The notes below the pieces were generated by a model. It saw nothing but the letters and a program-made list of their open reading frames with translations, had not been told where the DNA came from and searched no databases. A stretch of DNA of 64,000 nt from Candidatus Latescibacterota bacterium (GTDB lineage: Bacteria > Latescibacterota > UBA2968). Within the stretch, counting starts at the first letter, position 1. Each line of letters opens with the position of its first letter. Both the position numbers and the translations under genes were made by a program. Positions 1,442 through 14,032 of the stretch are shown one piece after another. Location of the stretch: positions 5,344,001-5,408,000 of the forward strand of contig OZ220741.1 of NCBI GenBank assembly GCA_965116885.1, in the 5' to 3' direction.

Positions 1442-2342
1442 TTTCCTCTACCTCCTTCAATAGCTTTTCTACAATCTTGCTCATTTGTTCTTCTTGCTTA
1501 TTTCTCCGAAGTTTATATATCCAATTAAATATCAGGGGGTCATTGCTACGCTTTTCGTAGATTTCATTTTGCAGATTTCGAGATTCAATTTCGAGCTGTG
1601 CATCCGATATTCTGCCATCAAGAGTATCGTCCCATAATTTGTCCACATATTCTTTTAAATCCTGTTGTCTTGATATAGAAGCATTGTGCGCCTTATATTG
1701 GTGTATTACCCAAAATATTGCCGGCATCAGAGGCAGTACGATTGCCATTAGCAATTTTTCTACAGTAAAACCTTCCCAGAGACCTAAAAGGAAGACAACT
1801 ACTATAAGACACCCAACAGCGACTGCAATGACTAGGGTATAAAACTTGCGTAATTCTGCATCCCACTGTAGATTTGCTCTCTGGCAAACGAAACGAGCTA
1901 AAGGCATTTGTAATTTCTGAACACCAACAGGATACCAATCTTTAAGTTTAATTTTTTTAGAATTTTTCCTATAATGTTTTGACGAATACTTAACGATTGT
2001 ATCTCGATCAGGATTTGGACCAACTTTCAAATCATACCATGGAAGTTCGAGAACCTTACAGTCGAATAGTTCCTTCATCTTTGCGCCTTTTTTTCGGAAC
2101 GAATCTATCCAAGATGTAAAGCCAAGACTATTAAAAAATGCTATGACAACACCATAATAAGCAGCATAAATTTTTAGGTCAAAATCCCACCAAGCAATCA
2201 GTATCAACCAAAAGGCAACAACGGGAATAGTAAGAATTATCCGCACAATTTCTAATATTTTGGCTTCTGAGTAAATCTGATGTTGGGCTGCCAGCATGTC
2301 GAGTTGTTGTTCATCATTTTGGATTTTGGGTATCTCGTTCAT
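1416..2342 (-). CDS. CBASS S-4TM (SMODS-associated 4TM, Cap16-like) membrane effector
   Basis: N-terminus QNDEQQLDMLAAQHQIYSEAK, ELFDC.VLELPW, LKDWY, CQRANLQWDAELR, SRNLQNEIY..R. Two pairs of TM helices; adjacent to a CD-NTase. Confidence 0.85.
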   Translation of the reverse strand: MNEIPKIQNDEQQLDMLAAQHQIYSEAKILEIVRIILTIPVVAFWLILIAWWDFDLKIYAAYYGVVIAFFNSLGFTSWIDSFRKKGAKMKELFDCKVLELPWYDLKVGPNPDRDTIVKYSSKHYRKNSKKIKLKDWYPVGVQKLQMPLARFVCQRANLQWDAELRKFYTLVIAVAVGCLIVVVFLLGLWEGFTVEKLLMAIVLPLMPAIFWVIHQYKAHNASISRQQDLKEYVDKLWDDTLDGRISDAQLEIESRNLQNEIYEKRSNDPLIFNWIYKLRRNKQEEQMSKIVEKLLKEVEESDRKSECS

Positions 2343-2398
2343 CTGATTATCCCATTTATCCGGAAATTTGGTATGGGACTTCCCTCGCCGAGAATTGT

Positions 2399-3406
2399 TT
2401 ACCTGTAAAGTAGTATATCAAACTGTGGAAACGCTGAACCAAATATATTCCTGTATTGTGCAATAGCTTGTTTGTGGTCATTTCGAAAAGCGGAAATGTA
2501 CGCATGACAAGCATCACCTTGATGCTCTCTTAGCCTTTCTATCGTCCTTTGTCGTACATCGTCGCTGAGATATTCATCAATCGGTGGTCCCAGTCCCTTT
2601 GGGTCTGGACAAGAACGATTCATAAAGTCCGGCGCGCTCGTAAAGACTCTAAAAATACCCTCTGCATAATCTTGAATAGGATTGGTACCGAGCAATGCGA
2701 GGCACATTACCTCAACGTGGTACGAACTTAAACGGTTCCTGTTTCTGCATTTGTTCCAGTATTTGATAAACATAATAATGTGAGAAGCCATCCCATTGTG
2801 AATTTTATTCGCAGCATGGACACGCGCTTTATCCAGATCAGGATTCGTGATTTTCCAGTCTCGGATATTGTGACCCATTGGAATACAATACCGAGGGGCA
2901 TCTATAAGAATCGGCTGAATGTAGAATGCTGGCACAATATCGATGGTGAACCCCAGCGAGGATAAATGGACCGTGATAGCCTGCCCATCTCTCCCGATTT
3001 TGGAATCAGGGTACGTAAGTTTGAGCGTATCTCTAAATTTGTTCAGCACCTTCACCGAATTGAGCATGCCATCCCAATCTAAGAGGTCGTAAAGCGGATT
3101 TGGTAACTTACCTGAACTCTCGATAATGGAAGGCACAATCTGTCCATTTTCAATATAGGAGAGACCACTGCCATCCATCACCGTAAAAACATCAATATCA
3201 TCTAAGGGGCTTATCTTTGTCCAGCGCACGGCTGAGCCAATTAAAAAGTCGCGTTGGATGCGCGGAAAAGATGGATCCCGGACATTGCGGTTGGCGAGTA
3301 CCTGGCGGATATAGTTATGAGAATCAGAGGCTTTTTGCCGTTCAAATTTGCTCGGGCTGATATTGCCGCAAAATTGCCGGAAAGCGGCATCGGTAGTGCT
3401 AGGCAT
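2399..3406 (-). CDS. cGAS/DncV-like nucleotidyltransferase (CD-NTase, SMODS domain)
   Basis: FLIGSAVRWTKISPLDDIDVF (GS...DID), IDIVPAF, WKITNP, IKYWN, LSSYHVE and DPKG motifs. Confidence 0.88.
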   Translation of the reverse strand: MPSTTDAAFRQFCGNISPSKFERQKASDSHNYIRQVLANRNVRDPSFPRIQRDFLIGSAVRWTKISPLDDIDVFTVMDGSGLSYIENGQIVPSIIESSGKLPNPLYDLLDWDGMLNSVKVLNKFRDTLKLTYPDSKIGRDGQAITVHLSSLGFTIDIVPAFYIQPILIDAPRYCIPMGHNIRDWKITNPDLDKARVHAANKIHNGMASHIIMFIKYWNKCRNRNRLSSYHVEVMCLALLGTNPIQDYAEGIFRVFTSAPDFMNRSCPDPKGLGPPIDEYLSDDVRQRTIERLREHQGDACHAYISAFRNDHKQAIAQYRNIFGSAFPQFDILLYR

Positions 3407-3500
3407 AGTTATACTCCTATAAGGTGGGGAGAGGTACTAATGAGTAAAGATAAGGGGAGAGAATAACTACAACCTATAGTGTAGGGAAGTAGATAGACAC

Positions 3501-3529
3501 AATTTATGGGATTGCACAGCAGTTGTCAA
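3501..3529 (-). promoter_or_regulatory. sigma70-type promoter of the CBASS/methyltransferase operon
   Basis: TTGACA-N17-TAAATT on the minus strand; AGGAG RBS before the ATG at 3406. Confidence 0.65.
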
Positions 3530-3596
3530 CCAATAAAAACTGAACAAATGGATAGGAGTTGTATCTAAGTATTTGTATATATTATCGTGTTGATAT

Positions 3597-4643
3597 TCAC
3601 TTCACTTTTTCAACAAACGGCCACATAAGATCGCTGTAGAAGCGGTGACCCGCGGCGCCGTAGTGGTGTTCTACGTGGTCGGGCACACCGGCGATCTCGT
3701 AGAGACGCGCGATGCCTTTGACTGCGCGATCGACTTCGGGCACAGGGAATAGCGTATCCTGTTTCCCATTCACAATACAGAGATGGCGCGGGGCAATAAG
3801 ACCTGTAACATCCCAAATTTCGCCAAAGCGCAAAATGCCGGGCACGCCATTGCAATCGCAATGGTGAATCAAACCACTGGTGCCCACAAGCGTACAAAAA
3901 GAACAACTTGGCACAGCAATAGTAATACGGGGATCAACCGCGGCGGCATAGCAGGTAATCACCCCACCGCCCGAATTGCCCATAACCAGAATCGTAGAGG
4001 TATCGATTTCGGGAATATCCTGTGCCCAATCAATAAGACGCATCACATCCCACACGCGCTCACCCGTTGCCGTGCGCCCGGCGAGCAAAGCATGCATGAA
4101 CTGGCTGCGGCAATCGCGGGCACCGTGGCGCTTGTTAATATCGGGAATAGCCGTAGTACTCGTACCGCGGGCAGCGGGCGCAATGGCGGCAAACCCGCGC
4201 CTGACCGCCTGAACAGCAACATCGCGGTCCTCCGTCTCGATCTTTTTTTGGTGATCGTCATCGCGCGCTTTCCCGATATACGTATCCATGCCGTATTTGT
4301 CGTGCCCGTGTGGCAAAACAGCGAGTGGAAAAGGCCCATCGCCCCTGGGTTTGAGATACCAGAACGGCAAGCCAAAACGCGGCTCGGTAGTAATCACACC
4401 GGGTTGCAACGTATAATCGCCCATATCTTGCGCTGCACCGAGTTGCACCTGAATCGTGTGATCGCCCAGAGACGCACCAATACTTTCGAGCCCCAGCATA
4501 TGCTGAAGCACCGGGCGCGCCTCCTCTTGCCATAGCAGAAAAGATTCGCGATCAGTCGCTCGACACGCGACATAGCGCAGTTCATCGGCATAAAGAGCGT
4601 CGAGATAGGTGCGGACAGCACCGCTGTGTTCAGGATGTTCCAT
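3597..4643 (-). CDS. alpha/beta hydrolase (dienelactone hydrolase/acetyl esterase-like)
   Basis: GNSGGG nucleophile elbow, D-x-L-F-P and C-terminal GHRF. Start reassigned to MEHPEH (4643) to avoid overlapping the divergent gene. Confidence 0.8.
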   Translation of the reverse strand: MEHPEHSGAVRTYLDALYADELRYVACRATDRESFLLWQEEARPVLQHMLGLESIGASLGDHTIQVQLGAAQDMGDYTLQPGVITTEPRFGLPFWYLKPRGDGPFPLAVLPHGHDKYGMDTYIGKARDDDHQKKIETEDRDVAVQAVRRGFAAIAPAARGTSTTAIPDINKRHGARDCRSQFMHALLAGRTATGERVWDVMRLIDWAQDIPEIDTSTILVMGNSGGGVITCYAAAVDPRITIAVPSCSFCTLVGTSGLIHHCDCNGVPGILRFGEIWDVTGLIAPRHLCIVNGKQDTLFPVPEVDRAVKGIARLYEIAGVPDHVEHHYGAAGHRFYSDLMWPFVEKVK

Positions 4644-10082: not shown

Positions 10083-11057
10083 ATGCAAATGAAGTGGGTG
10101 GTCGTAATTGTAACAGTTATAGTTGTAGGTGCGCTGGGCGTTGCCTACCATCTGAATACCAATTTTCCCAAAGCTGATCCGCCTTATAATATTCGCGTAT
10201 CGGGAACACCCGAACAGATCGAGCGAGGACGTTATTTAGCCAATCACGTCACGGTATGTCTCGAATGCCATTCAACACGGGATTGGGCGCATTATTCTGC
10301 GCCACCGCTGCCGGGCACCGAGGGTAAAGGCGGCGAGGTATTTCCCGAAACAGCGGGATTTCCAGGCACCTTGATCGCGCCCAATATCACGCCAGCAGCT
10401 TTGGGAGATTGGACAGATGGCGAAATCATTAGGGCTTTTACCAGCGGCGTAAACAAAAACGGCGATCCGCTTTTCCCACTGATGCCCTATCGCGCATATC
10501 GAAATCTCATGCCAGCAGATATTGACGCCATTGTCGCTTATGTGCGTACCCTATCTCCCATTGACCATATCCCGCCGCGATCCAAATTGAATTTTCCCAT
10601 GAACCTGATAGTACGCACAATGCCAGAACCCTATAAACTCCCCAAACCGGTTGATCGTTCAGACCCCGTTGCTTATGGCAAGTATTTGGCGACCATTGCC
10701 GGATGTGCCACTTGCCATACGCCTCATGATCAAAAACAGAGGGAGCCAGTTGAAGACATGGAATTCGCCGGAGGATTTCAATTCCGATTGCCCAGTGGCA
10801 AAACCGTGCAATCGGCCAATATTACACCCGACGTAGAAACGGGAATTGGGCATTGGAAAAAAGAGTACTTCATCGGGCGTTTCAGGCAATTTGCCGGAGA
10901 AAACGCAAAACATATCCTATTGCAAGACGGCATGAACAGCGTGATGCCCTGGACGATGTACGCGGGCATGACAGACGAAGACCTCAGCGCCATCTACGAC
11001 TATCTGCAAACCGTCGCGCCAATCCGAAATGCCGTCGAACGATTTGTGGAAGAATAA
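10083..11057 (+). CDS. membrane-anchored diheme cytochrome c
   Basis: N-terminal TM helix; CLECH and CATCH heme motifs; RGRYLA/YGKYLA, PNITP and MPY/MPW motifs. Confidence 0.88.
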   Translation: MQMKWVVVIVTVIVVGALGVAYHLNTNFPKADPPYNIRVSGTPEQIERGRYLANHVTVCLECHSTRDWAHYSAPPLPGTEGKGGEVFPETAGFPGTLIAPNITPAALGDWTDGEIIRAFTSGVNKNGDPLFPLMPYRAYRNLMPADIDAIVAYVRTLSPIDHIPPRSKLNFPMNLIVRTMPEPYKLPKPVDRSDPVAYGKYLATIAGCATCHTPHDQKQREPVEDMEFAGGFQFRLPSGKTVQSANITPDVETGIGHWKKEYFIGRFRQFAGENAKHILLQDGMNSVMPWTMYAGMTDEDLSAIYDYLQTVAPIRNAVERFVEE

Positions 11058-11067
11058 AGAGGAAAAT

Positions 11068-11844
11068 ATGGAATCGGGTTCCGGAGCATTTAATTTTAAT
11101 CGCGTCAAAGTATGGTATCATTGCCCGCAAGACCGTCTTACCGACCTGCCAGTGGTATTTGTCCTGCACGGAGCCTCGCGCAATGCCAGCACCTATCGCG
11201 ACACCTGGGCCAGCCATGCCGATACGCACGGATTTTTGTTATTGTCTCCAGAATTTTCACAGGAGAATTATCCAGATGAAACAACGTTTAACCTCGGCAA
11301 TGTATTTGCCGAAGATGGCACGCGAAATGCCATGGCCGATTGGTCCTTTCAAATAATTGAAGGCATTTTTCACCACGTCAAAAAACAAGTGGGACTCCGG
11401 GCATCGTCCTATGGATTTTATGGACATTCGGCGGGCAGCCAGTTTGTACACCGATTTTTGTACTTCATGCCTCAGTCACATGCACACATCTTTGTAGCGG
11501 CCAACGCCGGATGGTACACCATGCCCACATTCAAACAGACCTATCCCTATGGACTGGCCGAATCGGGTCTGACGGCCACGGATTTGAAACGATCTCTGAA
11601 CCAGCGGGTTGTGGTACTCCTGGGCACTGATGATGTGGATGTAAACCACCCCAAATTGAGGCGCACACCACAGGCAATGATGCAGGGCGCACACCGCTTT
11701 GAACGCGGCCACACATTTTTTGAAACGGCAAAACGAGAAGCCGAAGCACTAAACGTGTCATTTAACTGGCAGTTGGACACAGTACCCAACGTGGGACACA
11801 ACAATGCGGGAATGGCAAAAGTAGGCGTTGAATATTTGGTGTGA
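11068..11844 (+). CDS. alpha/beta hydrolase (esterase/depolymerase-like)
   Basis: VLHGASRNA, GHSAG, ANAGWYT and VGH motifs. Confidence 0.78.
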   Translation: MESGSGAFNFNRVKVWYHCPQDRLTDLPVVFVLHGASRNASTYRDTWASHADTHGFLLLSPEFSQENYPDETTFNLGNVFAEDGTRNAMADWSFQIIEGIFHHVKKQVGLRASSYGFYGHSAGSQFVHRFLYFMPQSHAHIFVAANAGWYTMPTFKQTYPYGLAESGLTATDLKRSLNQRVVVLLGTDDVDVNHPKLRRTPQAMMQGAHRFERGHTFFETAKREAEALNVSFNWQLDTVPNVGHNNAGMAKVGVEYLV

Positions 11845-11846
11845 TC

Positions 11847-11909
11847 GTAGGGACAACCCCCTGTGGTTGTCCTTGTCCTAACGGGCGGGCACAGGGGCGC
11901 CGCCCCTAC
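11847..11909. repeat. REP-like GTAG-type inverted doublet
   Basis: GTAGGGACAACCCCCTGTGGTTGTCC...GGGCGGGCACAGGGGCGCCGCCCCTAC. The right half, reverse-complemented, matches 63709-63737. Confidence 0.75.
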
Positions 11910-11944
11910 CTTCTTACGTCTCACCTCTTACTGCTTGTTTTGCT

Positions 11945-11988
11945 AAACAAAAAAAGAATGGCCGCGATCCCTGTTATCGCGGCCATTT
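11945..11988 (-). terminator. intrinsic terminator
   Basis: AATGGCCGCGAT-loop-ATCGCGGCCATT followed by CTTTTTTT on the minus strand. Confidence 0.85.
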
Positions 11989-12292
11989 ATGTACTACAAG
12001 TCATGGAACCTCTTATGTCAGCCGATCGGGTGAGAGGCCCTAACACCCGACCGCTGGATACAGATTGGTGGCATAGTAACCTCCTCTTGTGCGTATTGCG
12101 GCCCGTCACGCCCACTCGCGGTCCGATGAACTCTCTATGCCCTGTATGTTTGCGCGAAGGTCTAAAGAACGGTATCCAAGTCGGGTTACCGAATGGCGGT
12201 AACGAGTCCGACGGAAAAAAAGACCAGATGTAAAAACACACGGGCGAGAACCTTTTCGAGCGGAATGCCGCCTGACGATTCATATCGCCTGT
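11945..12292 (-). ncRNA. candidate structured RNA (unknown family) containing an 18-codon mini-ORF
   Basis: Own promoter and terminator, several long helices and a predicted pseudoknot, no credible long ORF. Confidence 0.5.
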
Positions 12293-12299
12293 TATTTGA

Positions 12300-12329
12300 A
12301 ATATAACCCGATAAATTGTAGGATGTCAA
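12300..12329 (-). promoter_or_regulatory. sigma70-type promoter of the candidate RNA
   Basis: TTGACA-N18-TATATT. Confidence 0.6.
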
Positions 12330-12436
12330 GAGCCAATTTGAACTTTTTTATAAGTATCTTTAGACAAAATTATGTACTATATATCAATGCCCAATCCGCG
12401 CTAATCATTTTAGCCATAGAACAGGAGAACACAGAT

Positions 12437-14032
12437 ATGGGATATGGCAAACGAGAAGACCCGAAACTGTTTAACGACGAGCAAATGCGTCAATATATCG
12501 CAGACGGATACGTGGTTTTTAAACCAGATGTGCCCGATGACCTGCACGAGACAATTCGCCGAAAACTGCAATTTATGGTCGATGAAGAATTCAATTACGG
12601 CAACAACGTGCTGCCCCGCGTCCCCGAGATGGATCGTATCTTAAACAGCCCAGAAGTGCGGGGCGCGCTCATCAGCGTACTCGGCCCGGGATATATCGAA
12701 CACCCGCATCGGTTTTGTCACTACATCGCGCCCGACGCAACACACAGAACACTCGCCCAAAATTGTCATCAAGATTCTTACACCCCCCTGGGACGCCCGC
12801 GCCAACACTACCCGCGCTTTGCGCGCATCATGTACTATCCTCAGGACTCACCCGTTGAAATCGGTCCCACACACGCGATTCCCGGCACACAGTATCACAG
12901 GCGATTGACAGATGAAGACCGCCAGAACGCCATACCAATAGCCGGCAAAGCCGGCACAGTATCAATCACACACTTTGATGTGGGACACGCCGCAGGCATC
13001 AACGCACGTCGCCAACCCCGGCATATGATCAAATTCATTTACGTGCGCGCAGAAGAACCGACCGCCCCCTCGTGGGATTGCCGGGATCACATCTGGCGAA
13101 ACCCCGAAACATACAAAACACCGCATGATCTGCACCTGATCTGGTCGCATATATGGGATTGGCTCTGTGGCAAAAAGGACCGATACGAAAGTTTTCGCGC
13201 ATCAGACCCCGCAACTTGTGGATTGGAAGACCTGCATCACGACAACTTGGACAAACAACTCGCATCCATGCACTCGATAGCCGCGACAAAAAACACCGAT
13301 GCAATTCCAGCATTGATTCACAAGCTCAATACCGACGATCAGTGGACGCGCCTCGCAGCTATATATACCCTGGGCGCAATAGGTCAACCCGCAGTACAGC
13401 CTCTAATGGAAGCACTCTTAGACGCCGCTATGCATCAAGACGAGGACCCCGTACCCGCATCGTGGAACGAAGGCGCCATCTCGATGGAAGATGCCGCCCA
13501 TGCACTTGTCGCCATAGGCACACCTTCACTGGATCCTCTAATTGGACTACTGGACAACCCGAGCGAATGGACACGCATCAACGCGGCCTTCGCGCTCGGT
13601 GAAATGGATTCTCTGGCGACACAAGCCGTCCCTGCACTCACGCGCTGTCTGGACGATGCATCTCACTGCGTCGTGCGAACAGCTACAGATGCACTGGGCA
13701 GCATTCGGCAAAACAGCAAAGAATATATACCCGTACTCGAGCGGCTGCTCAAAGTGGGACGCCCCGAATGGCAAATGCCCGACCGACGCGACTGGACGCC
13801 CTATGACCAGGTCCGCGTCAACGCCGCAATGGCATTTACGCGCCTGGGCAAAGACGCCACATCTGCCGAAGCTCTCCTGCTCGACACATTATCCGATCCC
13901 AACGGTCACGTCGCTGCATTTGCCCTGGAAGCATTGCGGCGGATAGGCACGCCCTCGGCAATGGATGGCGTCATGGAATATCTGATGACGCGGCGGTGGG
14001 ATGAAAGCATTGAGAAAGGAAGACTATTTTGA
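12437..14032 (+). CDS. phytanoyl-CoA dioxygenase (PhyH) domain fused to HEAT repeats
   Basis: YIADGYVVF, CHQDS (HxD), YYPQD.P...GPT.AIPG, then HEAT repeats (R.NAAFALG, VVRTATDALG). AGGAG RBS. Confidence 0.8.
   Translation: MGYGKREDPKLFNDEQMRQYIADGYVVFKPDVPDDLHETIRRKLQFMVDEEFNYGNNVLPRVPEMDRILNSPEVRGALISVLGPGYIEHPHRFCHYIAPDATHRTLAQNCHQDSYTPLGRPRQHYPRFARIMYYPQDSPVEIGPTHAIPGTQYHRRLTDEDRQNAIPIAGKAGTVSITHFDVGHAAGINARRQPRHMIKFIYVRAEEPTAPSWDCRDHIWRNPETYKTPHDLHLIWSHIWDWLCGKKDRYESFRASDPATCGLEDLHHDNLDKQLASMHSIAATKNTDAIPALIHKLNTDDQWTRLAAIYTLGAIGQPAVQPLMEALLDAAMHQDEDPVPASWNEGAISMEDAAHALVAIGTPSLDPLIGLLDNPSEWTRINAAFALGEMDSLATQAVPALTRCLDDASHCVVRTATDALGSIRQNSKEYIPVLERLLKVGRPEWQMPDRRDWTPYDQVRVNAAMAFTRLGKDATSAEALLLDTLSDPNGHVAAFALEALRRIGTPSAMDGVMEYLMTRRWDESIEKGRLF

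Follow-up and report, generated by a model that had tools for sequence, protein, structure and literature searches.

Positions 11948 to 12293 of the Candidatus Latescibacterota DNA analysed here (64,000 nucleotides (nt), referred to as the window) carry, on the minus strand, what is very probably the gene of a new family of stand-alone structured RNA with a conserved mini-open reading frame (mini-ORF) of the translated type. The family is outside Rfam, and all members found belong to a single class of Latescibacterota, a candidate phylum of uncultured sponge symbionts. Evidence comes from a promoter and terminator enclosing the RNA, covariation in its 5' rod domain, a Met-Pro-Pro mini-ORF shared between genera and very deep contigs in sponge RNA libraries. 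A first-pass annotation, made from the sequence alone, had proposed a stand-alone structured RNA at this place, either a new non-coding RNA class or a dual-function RNA. This interpretation is supported, and the observation behind it is confirmed in part: the gene unit, the ribosome-binding site (RBS), the ORF and the pseudoknot stood, while three of the helices did not.

Gene boundaries and transcription unit

The RNA gene lies in a 590-nt gap between two plus-strand genes, which holds both a promoter and a terminator. The features of the transcription unit are as follows.

12300..12329, minus strand: sigma-70-type promoter with a -35 box TTGACA (12329-12324), an 18-nt spacer and a -10 box TATATT (12305-12300)
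11948..11987, minus strand: intrinsic terminator with a 12-bp stem (11987..11957), a 7-nt loop and a T-run
11948..12293, minus strand: transcript of ~325-345 nt, with a probable 5' end at 12293-12284 and a 3' end at ~11965-11948
12274..12289, minus strand: 5' hairpin GGCGAU-AUGA-AUCGUC, specific to the window's genus

The TTGACA/TATATT promoter and the strong terminator that the first-pass annotation had read on this strand are present, at 12329..12300 and 11987..11957, respectively. The promoter matches the consensus at 11 of 12 positions and is the same in all 21 genomes of the window's genus; TTGACA-like and TA(T/C)A(T/C)T hexamers are also found 5' of homologues in other genera. Based on a MAFFT alignment that is not fitted to the structure, the terminator stem is 99.2% paired, with double changes at 5 of 11 pairs. 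The enclosed RNA folds better than 100/100 dinucleotide shuffles (z = -2.86), and the element is single copy in the window's own genome (one contig, 5.56 Mb, 98% complete).

The 5' hairpin at 12274..12289 has a base-pair probability of 0.62-0.65 in the main clade of the genus and of 0.29 in the divergent clade, and a G.U pair is changed to A-U in 4 genomes of the genus. No counterpart was seen upstream of the rod core in other genera. A long-range closing helix GUCAG/CUGAC predicted by RNAalifold is invariant within the genus and was not found by eye in genus g9 (see below for the labels).

Homologues and their distribution

Genera are labelled g1-g13 (g1 being the window's genus) and families f1-f4, and genomes and loci are given as G or L with three digits. 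Using BLAST, the element was found in 20/20 other genomes of the genus with 71-96% identity, and in 0/20 genomes from other genera. Two covariance models were then used, R1 and R2, both of which cover the 5' rod only; the structure of R1 was set by hand, and R2 is a second model built after adding the R1 matches in g9 and g8. Among 132 genomes of the class R1 matched 25, i.e. 21 of the window's genus, two of g9 and two of g8, a genus that belongs to a family other than the window's. R2 gave credible matches in 6 of the 22 genomes of family f2, with g11 (two), g10 (one) and g7 (one) as new members, and in 27 of the 31 genomes of family f1, where g3 (two), g5 (one, truncated) and g2 (one) were added. 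With stricter filters 28 of 151 genomes of the phylum were matched, including one in family f3, compared with 0/64 genomes of f4 and 0/36 genomes of other classes. The total is 34 homologues from 10 genera, 3 families and one class of Latescibacterota, where not being found among the searched genomes does not equal being absent.

Two weak R2 matches in g6 (20 and 18 bits) were rejected; they lie inside coding sequence, without promoter, ORF or terminator. This leaves g6 with no credible match among 15 genomes, while the RNA is present in its sister genera. An exact-pattern scan of a species-genome collection returned 22 matches, 18 of them in Candidatus Latescibacterota or uncultured Latescibacteria. 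The other four, and three matches in metagenome contigs of the Joint Genome Institute (JGI), were set aside as chance. Outside the genus, pattern matches with three mismatches are no commoner than with a reversed-pattern control.

One homologue stands apart from the rest. At L103 (genome G024) only the three basal rod helices are kept (74 nt) and the mini-ORF is out of frame, reading MHRPDT. Either decay of this copy or a minimal form of the RNA would explain this; the assembly is in fragments, with a completeness of 89%.

Structure and covariation of the 5' rod domain

The 5' part of the RNA forms a long branched hairpin that both covariance models describe.

12098..12271, minus strand: 5' rod domain, ~175 nt
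12271-12267/12102-12098, minus strand: helix Ha, GCGGC/GCCGC, basal and long-range
12263-12257/12118-12112, minus strand: helix Hb, CCGCUCG/CGAGUGG, basal and long-range
12252-12248/12124-12120, minus strand: helix Hc, GGUUC/GGACC, basal
12245-12237/12148-12139, minus strand: helix Hd, 9 bp with a bulge, followed by a large internal loop
12225-12221/12163-12159, minus strand: helix He, above the large internal loop
12212-12208/12184-12180, minus strand: helix Hf, which forms a two-part hairpin with Hg at the tip
12203-12185, minus strand: hairpin Hg, at the tip
12177-12166, minus strand: small hairpin Hh, GGA/UUC, at the tip

When 32 sequences are aligned to R2, 95.2% of the cells are standard pairs and double changes occur at 33 of 46 pairs, compared with 16.2 ± 2.2 in shuffles (0/500 reach 33). 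Sliding the pairing partner by 1-3 columns as a control leaves 10-17 pairs with double changes. With 25 sequences the corresponding numbers are 25 of 46 pairs versus 7.1 ± 1.8 in shuffles. Compensated changes can also be read from the raw cmsearch output, where Hb changes from CCGCUCG/CGAGUGG to CCAUCCG/CGGAUGG in g8, and Ha and Hc show G-C to A-U changes in g9. A pairwise covariation scan within the genus is uninformative, since the split into clades of 17 and 4 genomes produces 763 apparent covarying column pairs.

Across the 10 genera, sequence conservation peaks in the basal helices and in the asymmetric internal loops Ha/Hb and Hb/Hc. The upper rod is variable in length (in G024 a 74-nt core alone was matched), and its large internal loop measures ~11 x 10 nt in the window's genus. 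Judged from these comparisons, the upper rod appears to be variable and even dispensable, whereas the basal part is conserved in sequence. Conserved basal helices and loops combined with a variable upper part form the pattern of a specific binding site, and thus suggest a putative site for a protein or a small ligand.

Several helices had previously been read by eye in the first-pass annotation. Covariation supports all three of GGTCT/AGACC, GTCGG/CCGAC and GTTACCG/CGGTAAC. Pairing of ACAGGCGA with TCGCCCGT, on the other hand, has mismatches in the four divergent genomes of the genus, and its 3' arm pairs in a different helix that covaries. Other genera do not keep the inner hairpin GCGG/CCGC, its bases forming the covarying GCGGC/GCCGC and CCGCUCG/CGAGUGG. 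Both local pairings are wrong, their bases being part of Ha, Hb and Hd. As judged by eye, 6 of 21 genomes have lost the long-range TGGATAC/GTATCCA with no compensating change. For GGCATAG/CTATGCC one compensatory case was seen (GGCAC/GUGCC, in one genome), but this helix competes with a covarying one and is at best an alternative conformer.

The Met-Pro-Pro mini-ORF and its relay to the terminator

Downstream of the rod the RNA contains a Shine-Dalgarno (SD) sequence, two mini-ORFs and a pseudoknot.

12079..12086, minus strand: SD sequence GAGGAGGU, with the start codon 4 nt downstream; invariant in the genus
12018..12074, minus strand: mini-ORF 1, 18 codons followed by a stop, MPPICIQRSGVRASHPIG; intact in all 21 genomes of the genus
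12023..12053, minus strand: hairpin within ORF 1, CGGUCGGG / CCCGAUCG, with the stop codon just after its 3' arm
12007..12039, minus strand: pseudoknot between the hairpin loop GGCCUCU (12039-12033) and a second SD-like sequence AGAGGUU (12013-12007)
11987..12004, minus strand: mini-ORF 2, 5 codons (MTCST), with a stop codon UAA that abuts the terminator stem

The AGGAGG RBS and the 18-codon ORF at 12074..12018 had both been recognised in the first-pass annotation and are present. The mini-ORF carries more weight than was suspected there, as its start codon and Pro-Pro are the conserved feature across 10 genera. GGAGG precedes the start in 33 of 34 homologues, the exception being G081 with AAAGG, and in 32 of 34 the SD is followed by a start codon (AUG, GUG or UUG) and then by CCR CCN. 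Most homologues start with AUG, the two g9 genomes with GUG and g2 with UUG, and the third base varies in both proline codons (CCA/CCG in the first, CCA/CCU/CCG in the second). Three valid start codons at one position and synonymous variation of the prolines indicate a constraint at the level of translation, and an in-frame 3-nt indel is present in 4 genomes of the genus. On this comparative basis of SD, start codon and Pro-Pro in 32 of 34 homologues, mini-ORF 1 is a candidate for a translated small ORF. Past Met-Pro-Pro the peptides have 9-32 residues and are unrelated between genera (MPPICIQRSG.., MPPDRFVRPR.., MPPGCYWRPLRT, MPPGNLKRP), which points away from a functional peptide. Consecutive prolines, especially right after formyl-methionine, polymerise slowly and need elongation factor P (EF-P). 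Because the initial Pro-Pro would thus be slow to translate and dependent on EF-P and prolyl-tRNA, we infer that the peptide is not the product and that the ORF acts as a cis-acting translation sensor.

The pairing between the hairpin loop and the downstream sequence, which the first-pass annotation had proposed as a pseudoknot, is borne out by double changes at 2 pairs. In the MAFFT alignment it is 96.2% paired, with C-G changed to U-A in both g9 genomes and an outer pair that appears as U-A, U.G, C-G or A-U. The hairpin in ORF 1 is 99.5% paired in g1 and g9, where 4 of its 8 pairs vary on one side only, including G.U, A-U and G-C at one pair.

The connection to the terminator takes several forms. 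In g1, g9 and g11 the hairpin-loop pseudoknot hides the second SD, and the 3-5-codon ORF behind this SD stops at the foot of the terminator; counterparts of mini-ORF 2 are MSCHT and MCCHI in g9 and MISF in G082 (by eye). A 12-codon second ORF extends into the terminator in g8 and g10. The homologues of g3 and g13 are without relay, and there the terminator's 5' arm or loop contains the end of the Met-Pro-Pro ORF. An ORF or relay ORF ending in or at the terminator stem is therefore seen in g3, g13, g8, g10, g11, g9 and most of g1.

Abundance in sponge metatranscriptomes

Part of the stretch is contained in 7 RNA runs, and sponge metagenome runs contain it as well. Contigs of four metatranscriptome runs from four studies were placed on positions 11000-13400. 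In run X19 the summed contig depth is 172,517-604,092 over 11972-12295, compared with 1-130 in the flanks. Many of its 577 placed contigs have 90-99% identity, indicating that several strains or species are present. In X17, which comes from a different study, the depth is 2,283-4,202 versus 0-25 in the flanks, and one 276-nt contig spans 12009..12283. In these two runs the contig depth over the RNA is 100 to 100,000 times that of the flanks and by far the highest on the 2.4-kb stretch. Illumina adaptor sequence directly follows position 12284 in X11 and 12287 in X19, and directly precedes 11965 in X19; these junctions place fragment ends near the predicted start and within the terminator.

These data give strong support for a discrete, very abundant species from this locus in RNA libraries, as distinct from a measured expression level. 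As in dual-function small RNAs (sRNAs), a promoter and a terminator bound the unit and the contigs are confined to 11965-12287. The metatranscriptome coverage that the first-pass annotation had named as a check thus yielded very deep contigs in RNA libraries, but the contigs do not resolve the strand.

A single contig of X11 (depth 330) runs from 12284 to 11083, through the terminator and antisense to the hydrolase-like gene that converges on the RNA. Antisense transcription by read-through, or a join made during assembly, may explain it.

Known RNA families and coding frames

No Rfam 15 family matches at gathering score across the whole window, and at E<=10 a chance match to hepatitis C virus (HCV) is the only one over 11700-12600. 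At 8 loci of other genera no family matched the RNA either. The Rfam search and the covariation analysis, both of which had been suggested in the first-pass annotation, support its proposal: the RNA matches no family, and the rod, the pseudoknot and the terminator covary among homologues. Among the matches listed by a full-text literature search there is no paper on this RNA.

The first-pass annotation had also noted that hallmarks of transfer-messenger RNA (tmRNA), RNase P RNA and signal recognition particle (SRP) RNA are missing, in agreement with the finding that all three RNAs are located elsewhere in the genome. ARAGORN reports no tRNA or tmRNA in the window, and a canonical tmRNA (189 bits, tag ADDNTYAMAA) is encoded elsewhere. 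An identity with tmRNA (RF00023) was rejected, as there is no tRNA-like domain and no Rfam match, and the ORF here has an SD and an AUG. RNase P RNA (RF00010, 318 bits) and SRP RNA (RF00169, 74 bits) were rejected likewise, since their covariance models have no match in the window and both genes sit elsewhere in the genome. The 6S RNA model RF00013 has no match at E<=10, neither in the region nor in the whole genome. Across 151 genomes of the phylum it gives nothing over the cut-off, with 6 sub-threshold matches in two distant families, so its silence in this genome is uninformative. A 6S RNA of Latescibacterota, if any exists, is not recognised by the Rfam model.

No credible protein gene had been seen between promoter and terminator, and this holds, as no long ORF is conserved over the 21 genomes of the genus. 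A 98-aa frame on the minus strand (11987..12283) and a 130-aa frame on the plus strand have no Pfam match. The first ORF in the RNA varies between 31 and 99 aa over these genomes and has lost its ATG in 4, and the longest stop-free stretches differ in length and frame between genomes on both strands. A long ORF as gene product was consequently rejected for either strand, with frames that are not conserved and have no Pfam match.

Genomic neighbourhood

The two flanking genes of the window and two riboswitches found near homologues are listed here.

Ends at 11844, plus strand: alpha/beta-hydrolase-like ORF, converging on the RNA
12434-14032, plus strand: fusion of a phytanoyl-CoA dioxygenase (PhyH) domain with HEAT/PBS-lyase repeats, divergent neighbour, starting ~105 nt from the -35 box of the RNA
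858-945 of L088, plus strand: ZMP/ZTP riboswitch, 53.3 bits (gathering score 39)
382-468 of L087, minus strand: ZMP/ZTP riboswitch, 32.7 bits, under the gathering score

The surrounding region shows synteny between g1 and g9, with a cytochrome c gene on one flank and a BNR-repeat gene on the opposite flank. In g1, g9 and g11 the first gene downstream of the RNA is transcribed towards it. In g8 the ZMP/ZTP riboswitch directly follows the terminators of the RNA and lies ahead of a 2-hydroxyacid-dehydrogenase-like gene. A second intrinsic terminator is found downstream on the same strand, within tens of bases, at 3/3 loci scanned (G082, G080 and G079). No downstream gene is conserved across the homologues, and neighbours vary between genera. 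Convergent and varied neighbours, together with the tandem second terminator, speak for a stand-alone RNA gene and against the leader of a conserved gene.

The convergent gene in g9 and g11, two genera from different families, is pdxA-like (motif ..IIG(L/I)TVGDPAGIGPEIV..; 2678-3751 in L090, with homologues in L089, L094 and L096), where the window's genus has the hydrolase-like gene instead. Just downstream of the RNA's terminator, at 11846-11925, there are two palindromic repeat units of ~30 nt with the look of repetitive extragenic palindromic (REP) elements, for which blastn-short gives 73 and 11 other matches in the genome. Contigs from the RNA runs show many loose ends and joints at 11870-11914.

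Alternative explanations

Part of the data could be explained by a cis-acting leader, in which a riboswitch-like aptamer is combined with a leader-peptide attenuator, the abundant RNA is the terminated by-product, and read-through controls a gene downstream, be it co-directional or, through antisense transcription, convergent. All architectures seen have the end of the ORF or of a relay ORF in or at the terminator stem, as do leaders of the pyrBI and mgtL type, and the ORF layout would suit an attenuator, with a short ORF whose regulatory codons compete with a terminator. The rod shows an aptamer-like conservation pattern, i.e. covarying helices with conserved unpaired nucleotides in the basal loops across 10 genera, and the X11 contig passes through the terminator antisense to the hydrolase gene. 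In g3 the same strand carries a CBS-domain gene ~75 nt past the terminator, an arrangement in keeping with a cis-acting leader in that genus. However, neither the conserved co-directional gene that an attenuator would control nor the steady link to downstream genes of one pathway that is expected of a riboswitch was found among the homologues: the downstream gene is not conserved and converges on the RNA in g1, g9 and g11, the next co-directional gene in g8 carries its own ZTP riboswitch, and the second terminator follows within tens of bases at all three loci scanned. In addition, the depth exceeds that of the flanks 100 to 100,000 fold, and a contig across two genes does not prove one transcript. 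With these points on both sides, we consider a leader unlikely. A plain mRNA, with a long structured 5' untranslated region ahead of the frame for a functional small protein (9-32 aa), is consistent with the SD, start codon and intact frame kept in 32 of 34 homologues and with a peptide that is well conserved within the genus (MPPIC.QRSG...), including some synonymous changes. Such an mRNA is nevertheless improbable: Met-Pro-Pro alone is common to the genera, with 9-32 codons and unrelated sequences otherwise, the genus-conserved RSG and P(I/V) are encoded by the hairpin arms, so that RNA constraint can explain them, and the strongest conservation and covariation lie in the 5' rod and not in the ORF.

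6S RNA, which binds sigma-70 RNA polymerase and templates product RNAs, has the shape of an unbranched rod, in which conserved pairs flank a large central bubble that is itself conserved. A hairpin-shaped rod of ~175 nt with an internal loop of ~11 x 10 nt, the very high abundance and the lack of a 6S RNA found by RF00013 in this genome even at E<=10 might suggest a divergent 6S-like RNA that sequesters the RNA polymerase holoenzyme. Yet RF00013 is silent over all 151 phylum genomes, so that absence here says nothing, and the rod is branched and conserved at its base, with an upper part including the large loop that is variable and missing in G024. To our knowledge, a 3' SD/ORF module is not known in 6S RNAs, and we regard this assignment as highly improbable. 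Practically no weight can be given to a CsrB/RsmZ-type sponge that titrates CsrA through GGA-containing SD-like sites. The two AGGAG sites ~70 nt apart and the GGA-containing hairpin would be suited to this role, but the 98%-complete single-contig genome has no CsrA (PF02599) match and the RNA offers only 2-3 GGA sites.

Proposed mechanism and significance

Taken as a whole, the data are best explained by a new translation-gated riboregulator of the dual-function type, to which we give an even chance. Besides the CBS-domain gene of g3, several points weigh against it. Of the 34 homologues 21 come from one genus, and the rod alignments made with the covariance models (A4 and A5) are fitted to the model and hence lean to the modelled structure. 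Two of the 34 have no Pro-Pro, i.e. G081, with MPL and a weak SD, and G024, with a shifted frame and a truncated rod. The ORF-1 hairpin has zero double changes, the SD/start hairpin shows no variation at all, and mini-ORF 2 is not universal, as three divergent genomes of the genus lack it. As to the RNA runs, contig depth is a crude measure of expression, the runs were picked for containing this stretch, and contigs give neither strand nor exact ends. In the coral run X18 the depth is flat (32-64) and a contig from 11963 to 12457 spans the promoter; this run may therefore hold DNA and adds nothing on expression.

The gating mechanism itself is possible, and we advance it tentatively and with some doubt. 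The RNA would consist of two modules, the 175-nt rod and a translation module made up of a strong SD, a start codon, Met-Pro-Pro and a short unconserved ORF, and the Met-Pro-Pro ORF would act as a gate for ribosomes. A translating ribosome unwinds ~12 nt ahead of its P site. Ribosomes past the gate would open the ORF hairpin and the pseudoknot, would then load the second mini-ORF or run on, and would finally invade the terminator hairpin. In the nascent transcript this invasion may favour read-through to the back-up terminator, and in the mature RNA it may expose the 3' end. The level or form of the rod-bearing RNA could thereby be set by translation capacity.

A more specific proposal, which is unlikely on present evidence, is that the hyper-abundant RNA measures Met-Pro-Pro translation and with it EF-P, prolyl-tRNA and elongation capacity. 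When translation is slow the RNA would accumulate and the rod would titrate a protein or ligand; successful passage of ribosomes would unfold the pseudoknot, lead to loading of the second mini-ORF and remove the terminator hairpin that protects the 3' end. By analogy, this would follow a 6S-like logic with a ribosome readout and might provide a dormancy or growth-rate signal in slow-growing sponge symbionts.

Bacterial RNAs that are large, conserved, highly expressed and uncatalogued are seldom found, and new biology has come from several of those described before. Should the ORF be a sensor, the passage of ribosomes through proline codons would decide the fate of this stand-alone RNA, coupling translation capacity to regulation without a downstream gene. 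The covariance model allows the RNA to be annotated in Latescibacterota genomes, and the RNA explains why contigs of this locus are so deep in sponge metatranscriptomes.

Comparison with known systems

tmRNA is built around a tRNA-like domain formed from its 5' and 3' ends and has a tag ORF without SD or start codon. The RNA described here resembles it in a length of ~350 nt, abundance, a pseudoknot and an internal mini-ORF, but lacks the tRNA-like domain and has an ORF with SD and start codon. OLE, GOLLD, ROOL and the raiA motif are large orphan structured RNAs whose function was not known at discovery. As in these cases, a long, abundant RNA supported by covariation was found by comparative genomics; in contrast to them it is smaller, restricted to one class of one candidate phylum, unmatched by any of their Rfam models and equipped with a conserved translated-looking module.

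The leaders of mgtL and mgtP (Salmonella mgtA/mgtCBR) and of E. coli pyrBI are attenuators that sense proline decoding or coupling. Common to them and to the present RNA are a short ORF with prolines at the terminator and a structured domain upstream. The differences are that no downstream gene is conserved here, a tandem second terminator follows at 3/3 loci, the terminated RNA is hugely abundant and the prolines are codons 2 and 3. EF-P and the coupling of transcription and translation are treated in published work (PMC5021804, PMC5299641).

The dual-function (coding) sRNAs RNAIII/hld of Staphylococcus, SgrS/SgrT of E. coli and SR1/SR1P of B. subtilis are alike in having their own promoter and terminator, high abundance, structure, a size of a few hundred nt and a short ORF with a strong SD. 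B. subtilis SR7, a dual-function sRNA (PMC7834092), is likewise comparable. Unlike in these sRNAs, the peptide is unconserved past Met-Pro-Pro, the ORF is tied to a pseudoknot, a second mini-ORF and the terminator, and the RNA is unrelated in sequence and not in Rfam. Thus, the kind of RNA is known, both as an sRNA with a small ORF and as a leader-peptide device, while the family and its architecture are new: a stand-alone rod joined to a Met-Pro-Pro ORF that is relayed to the RNA's own terminator, at extreme abundance.

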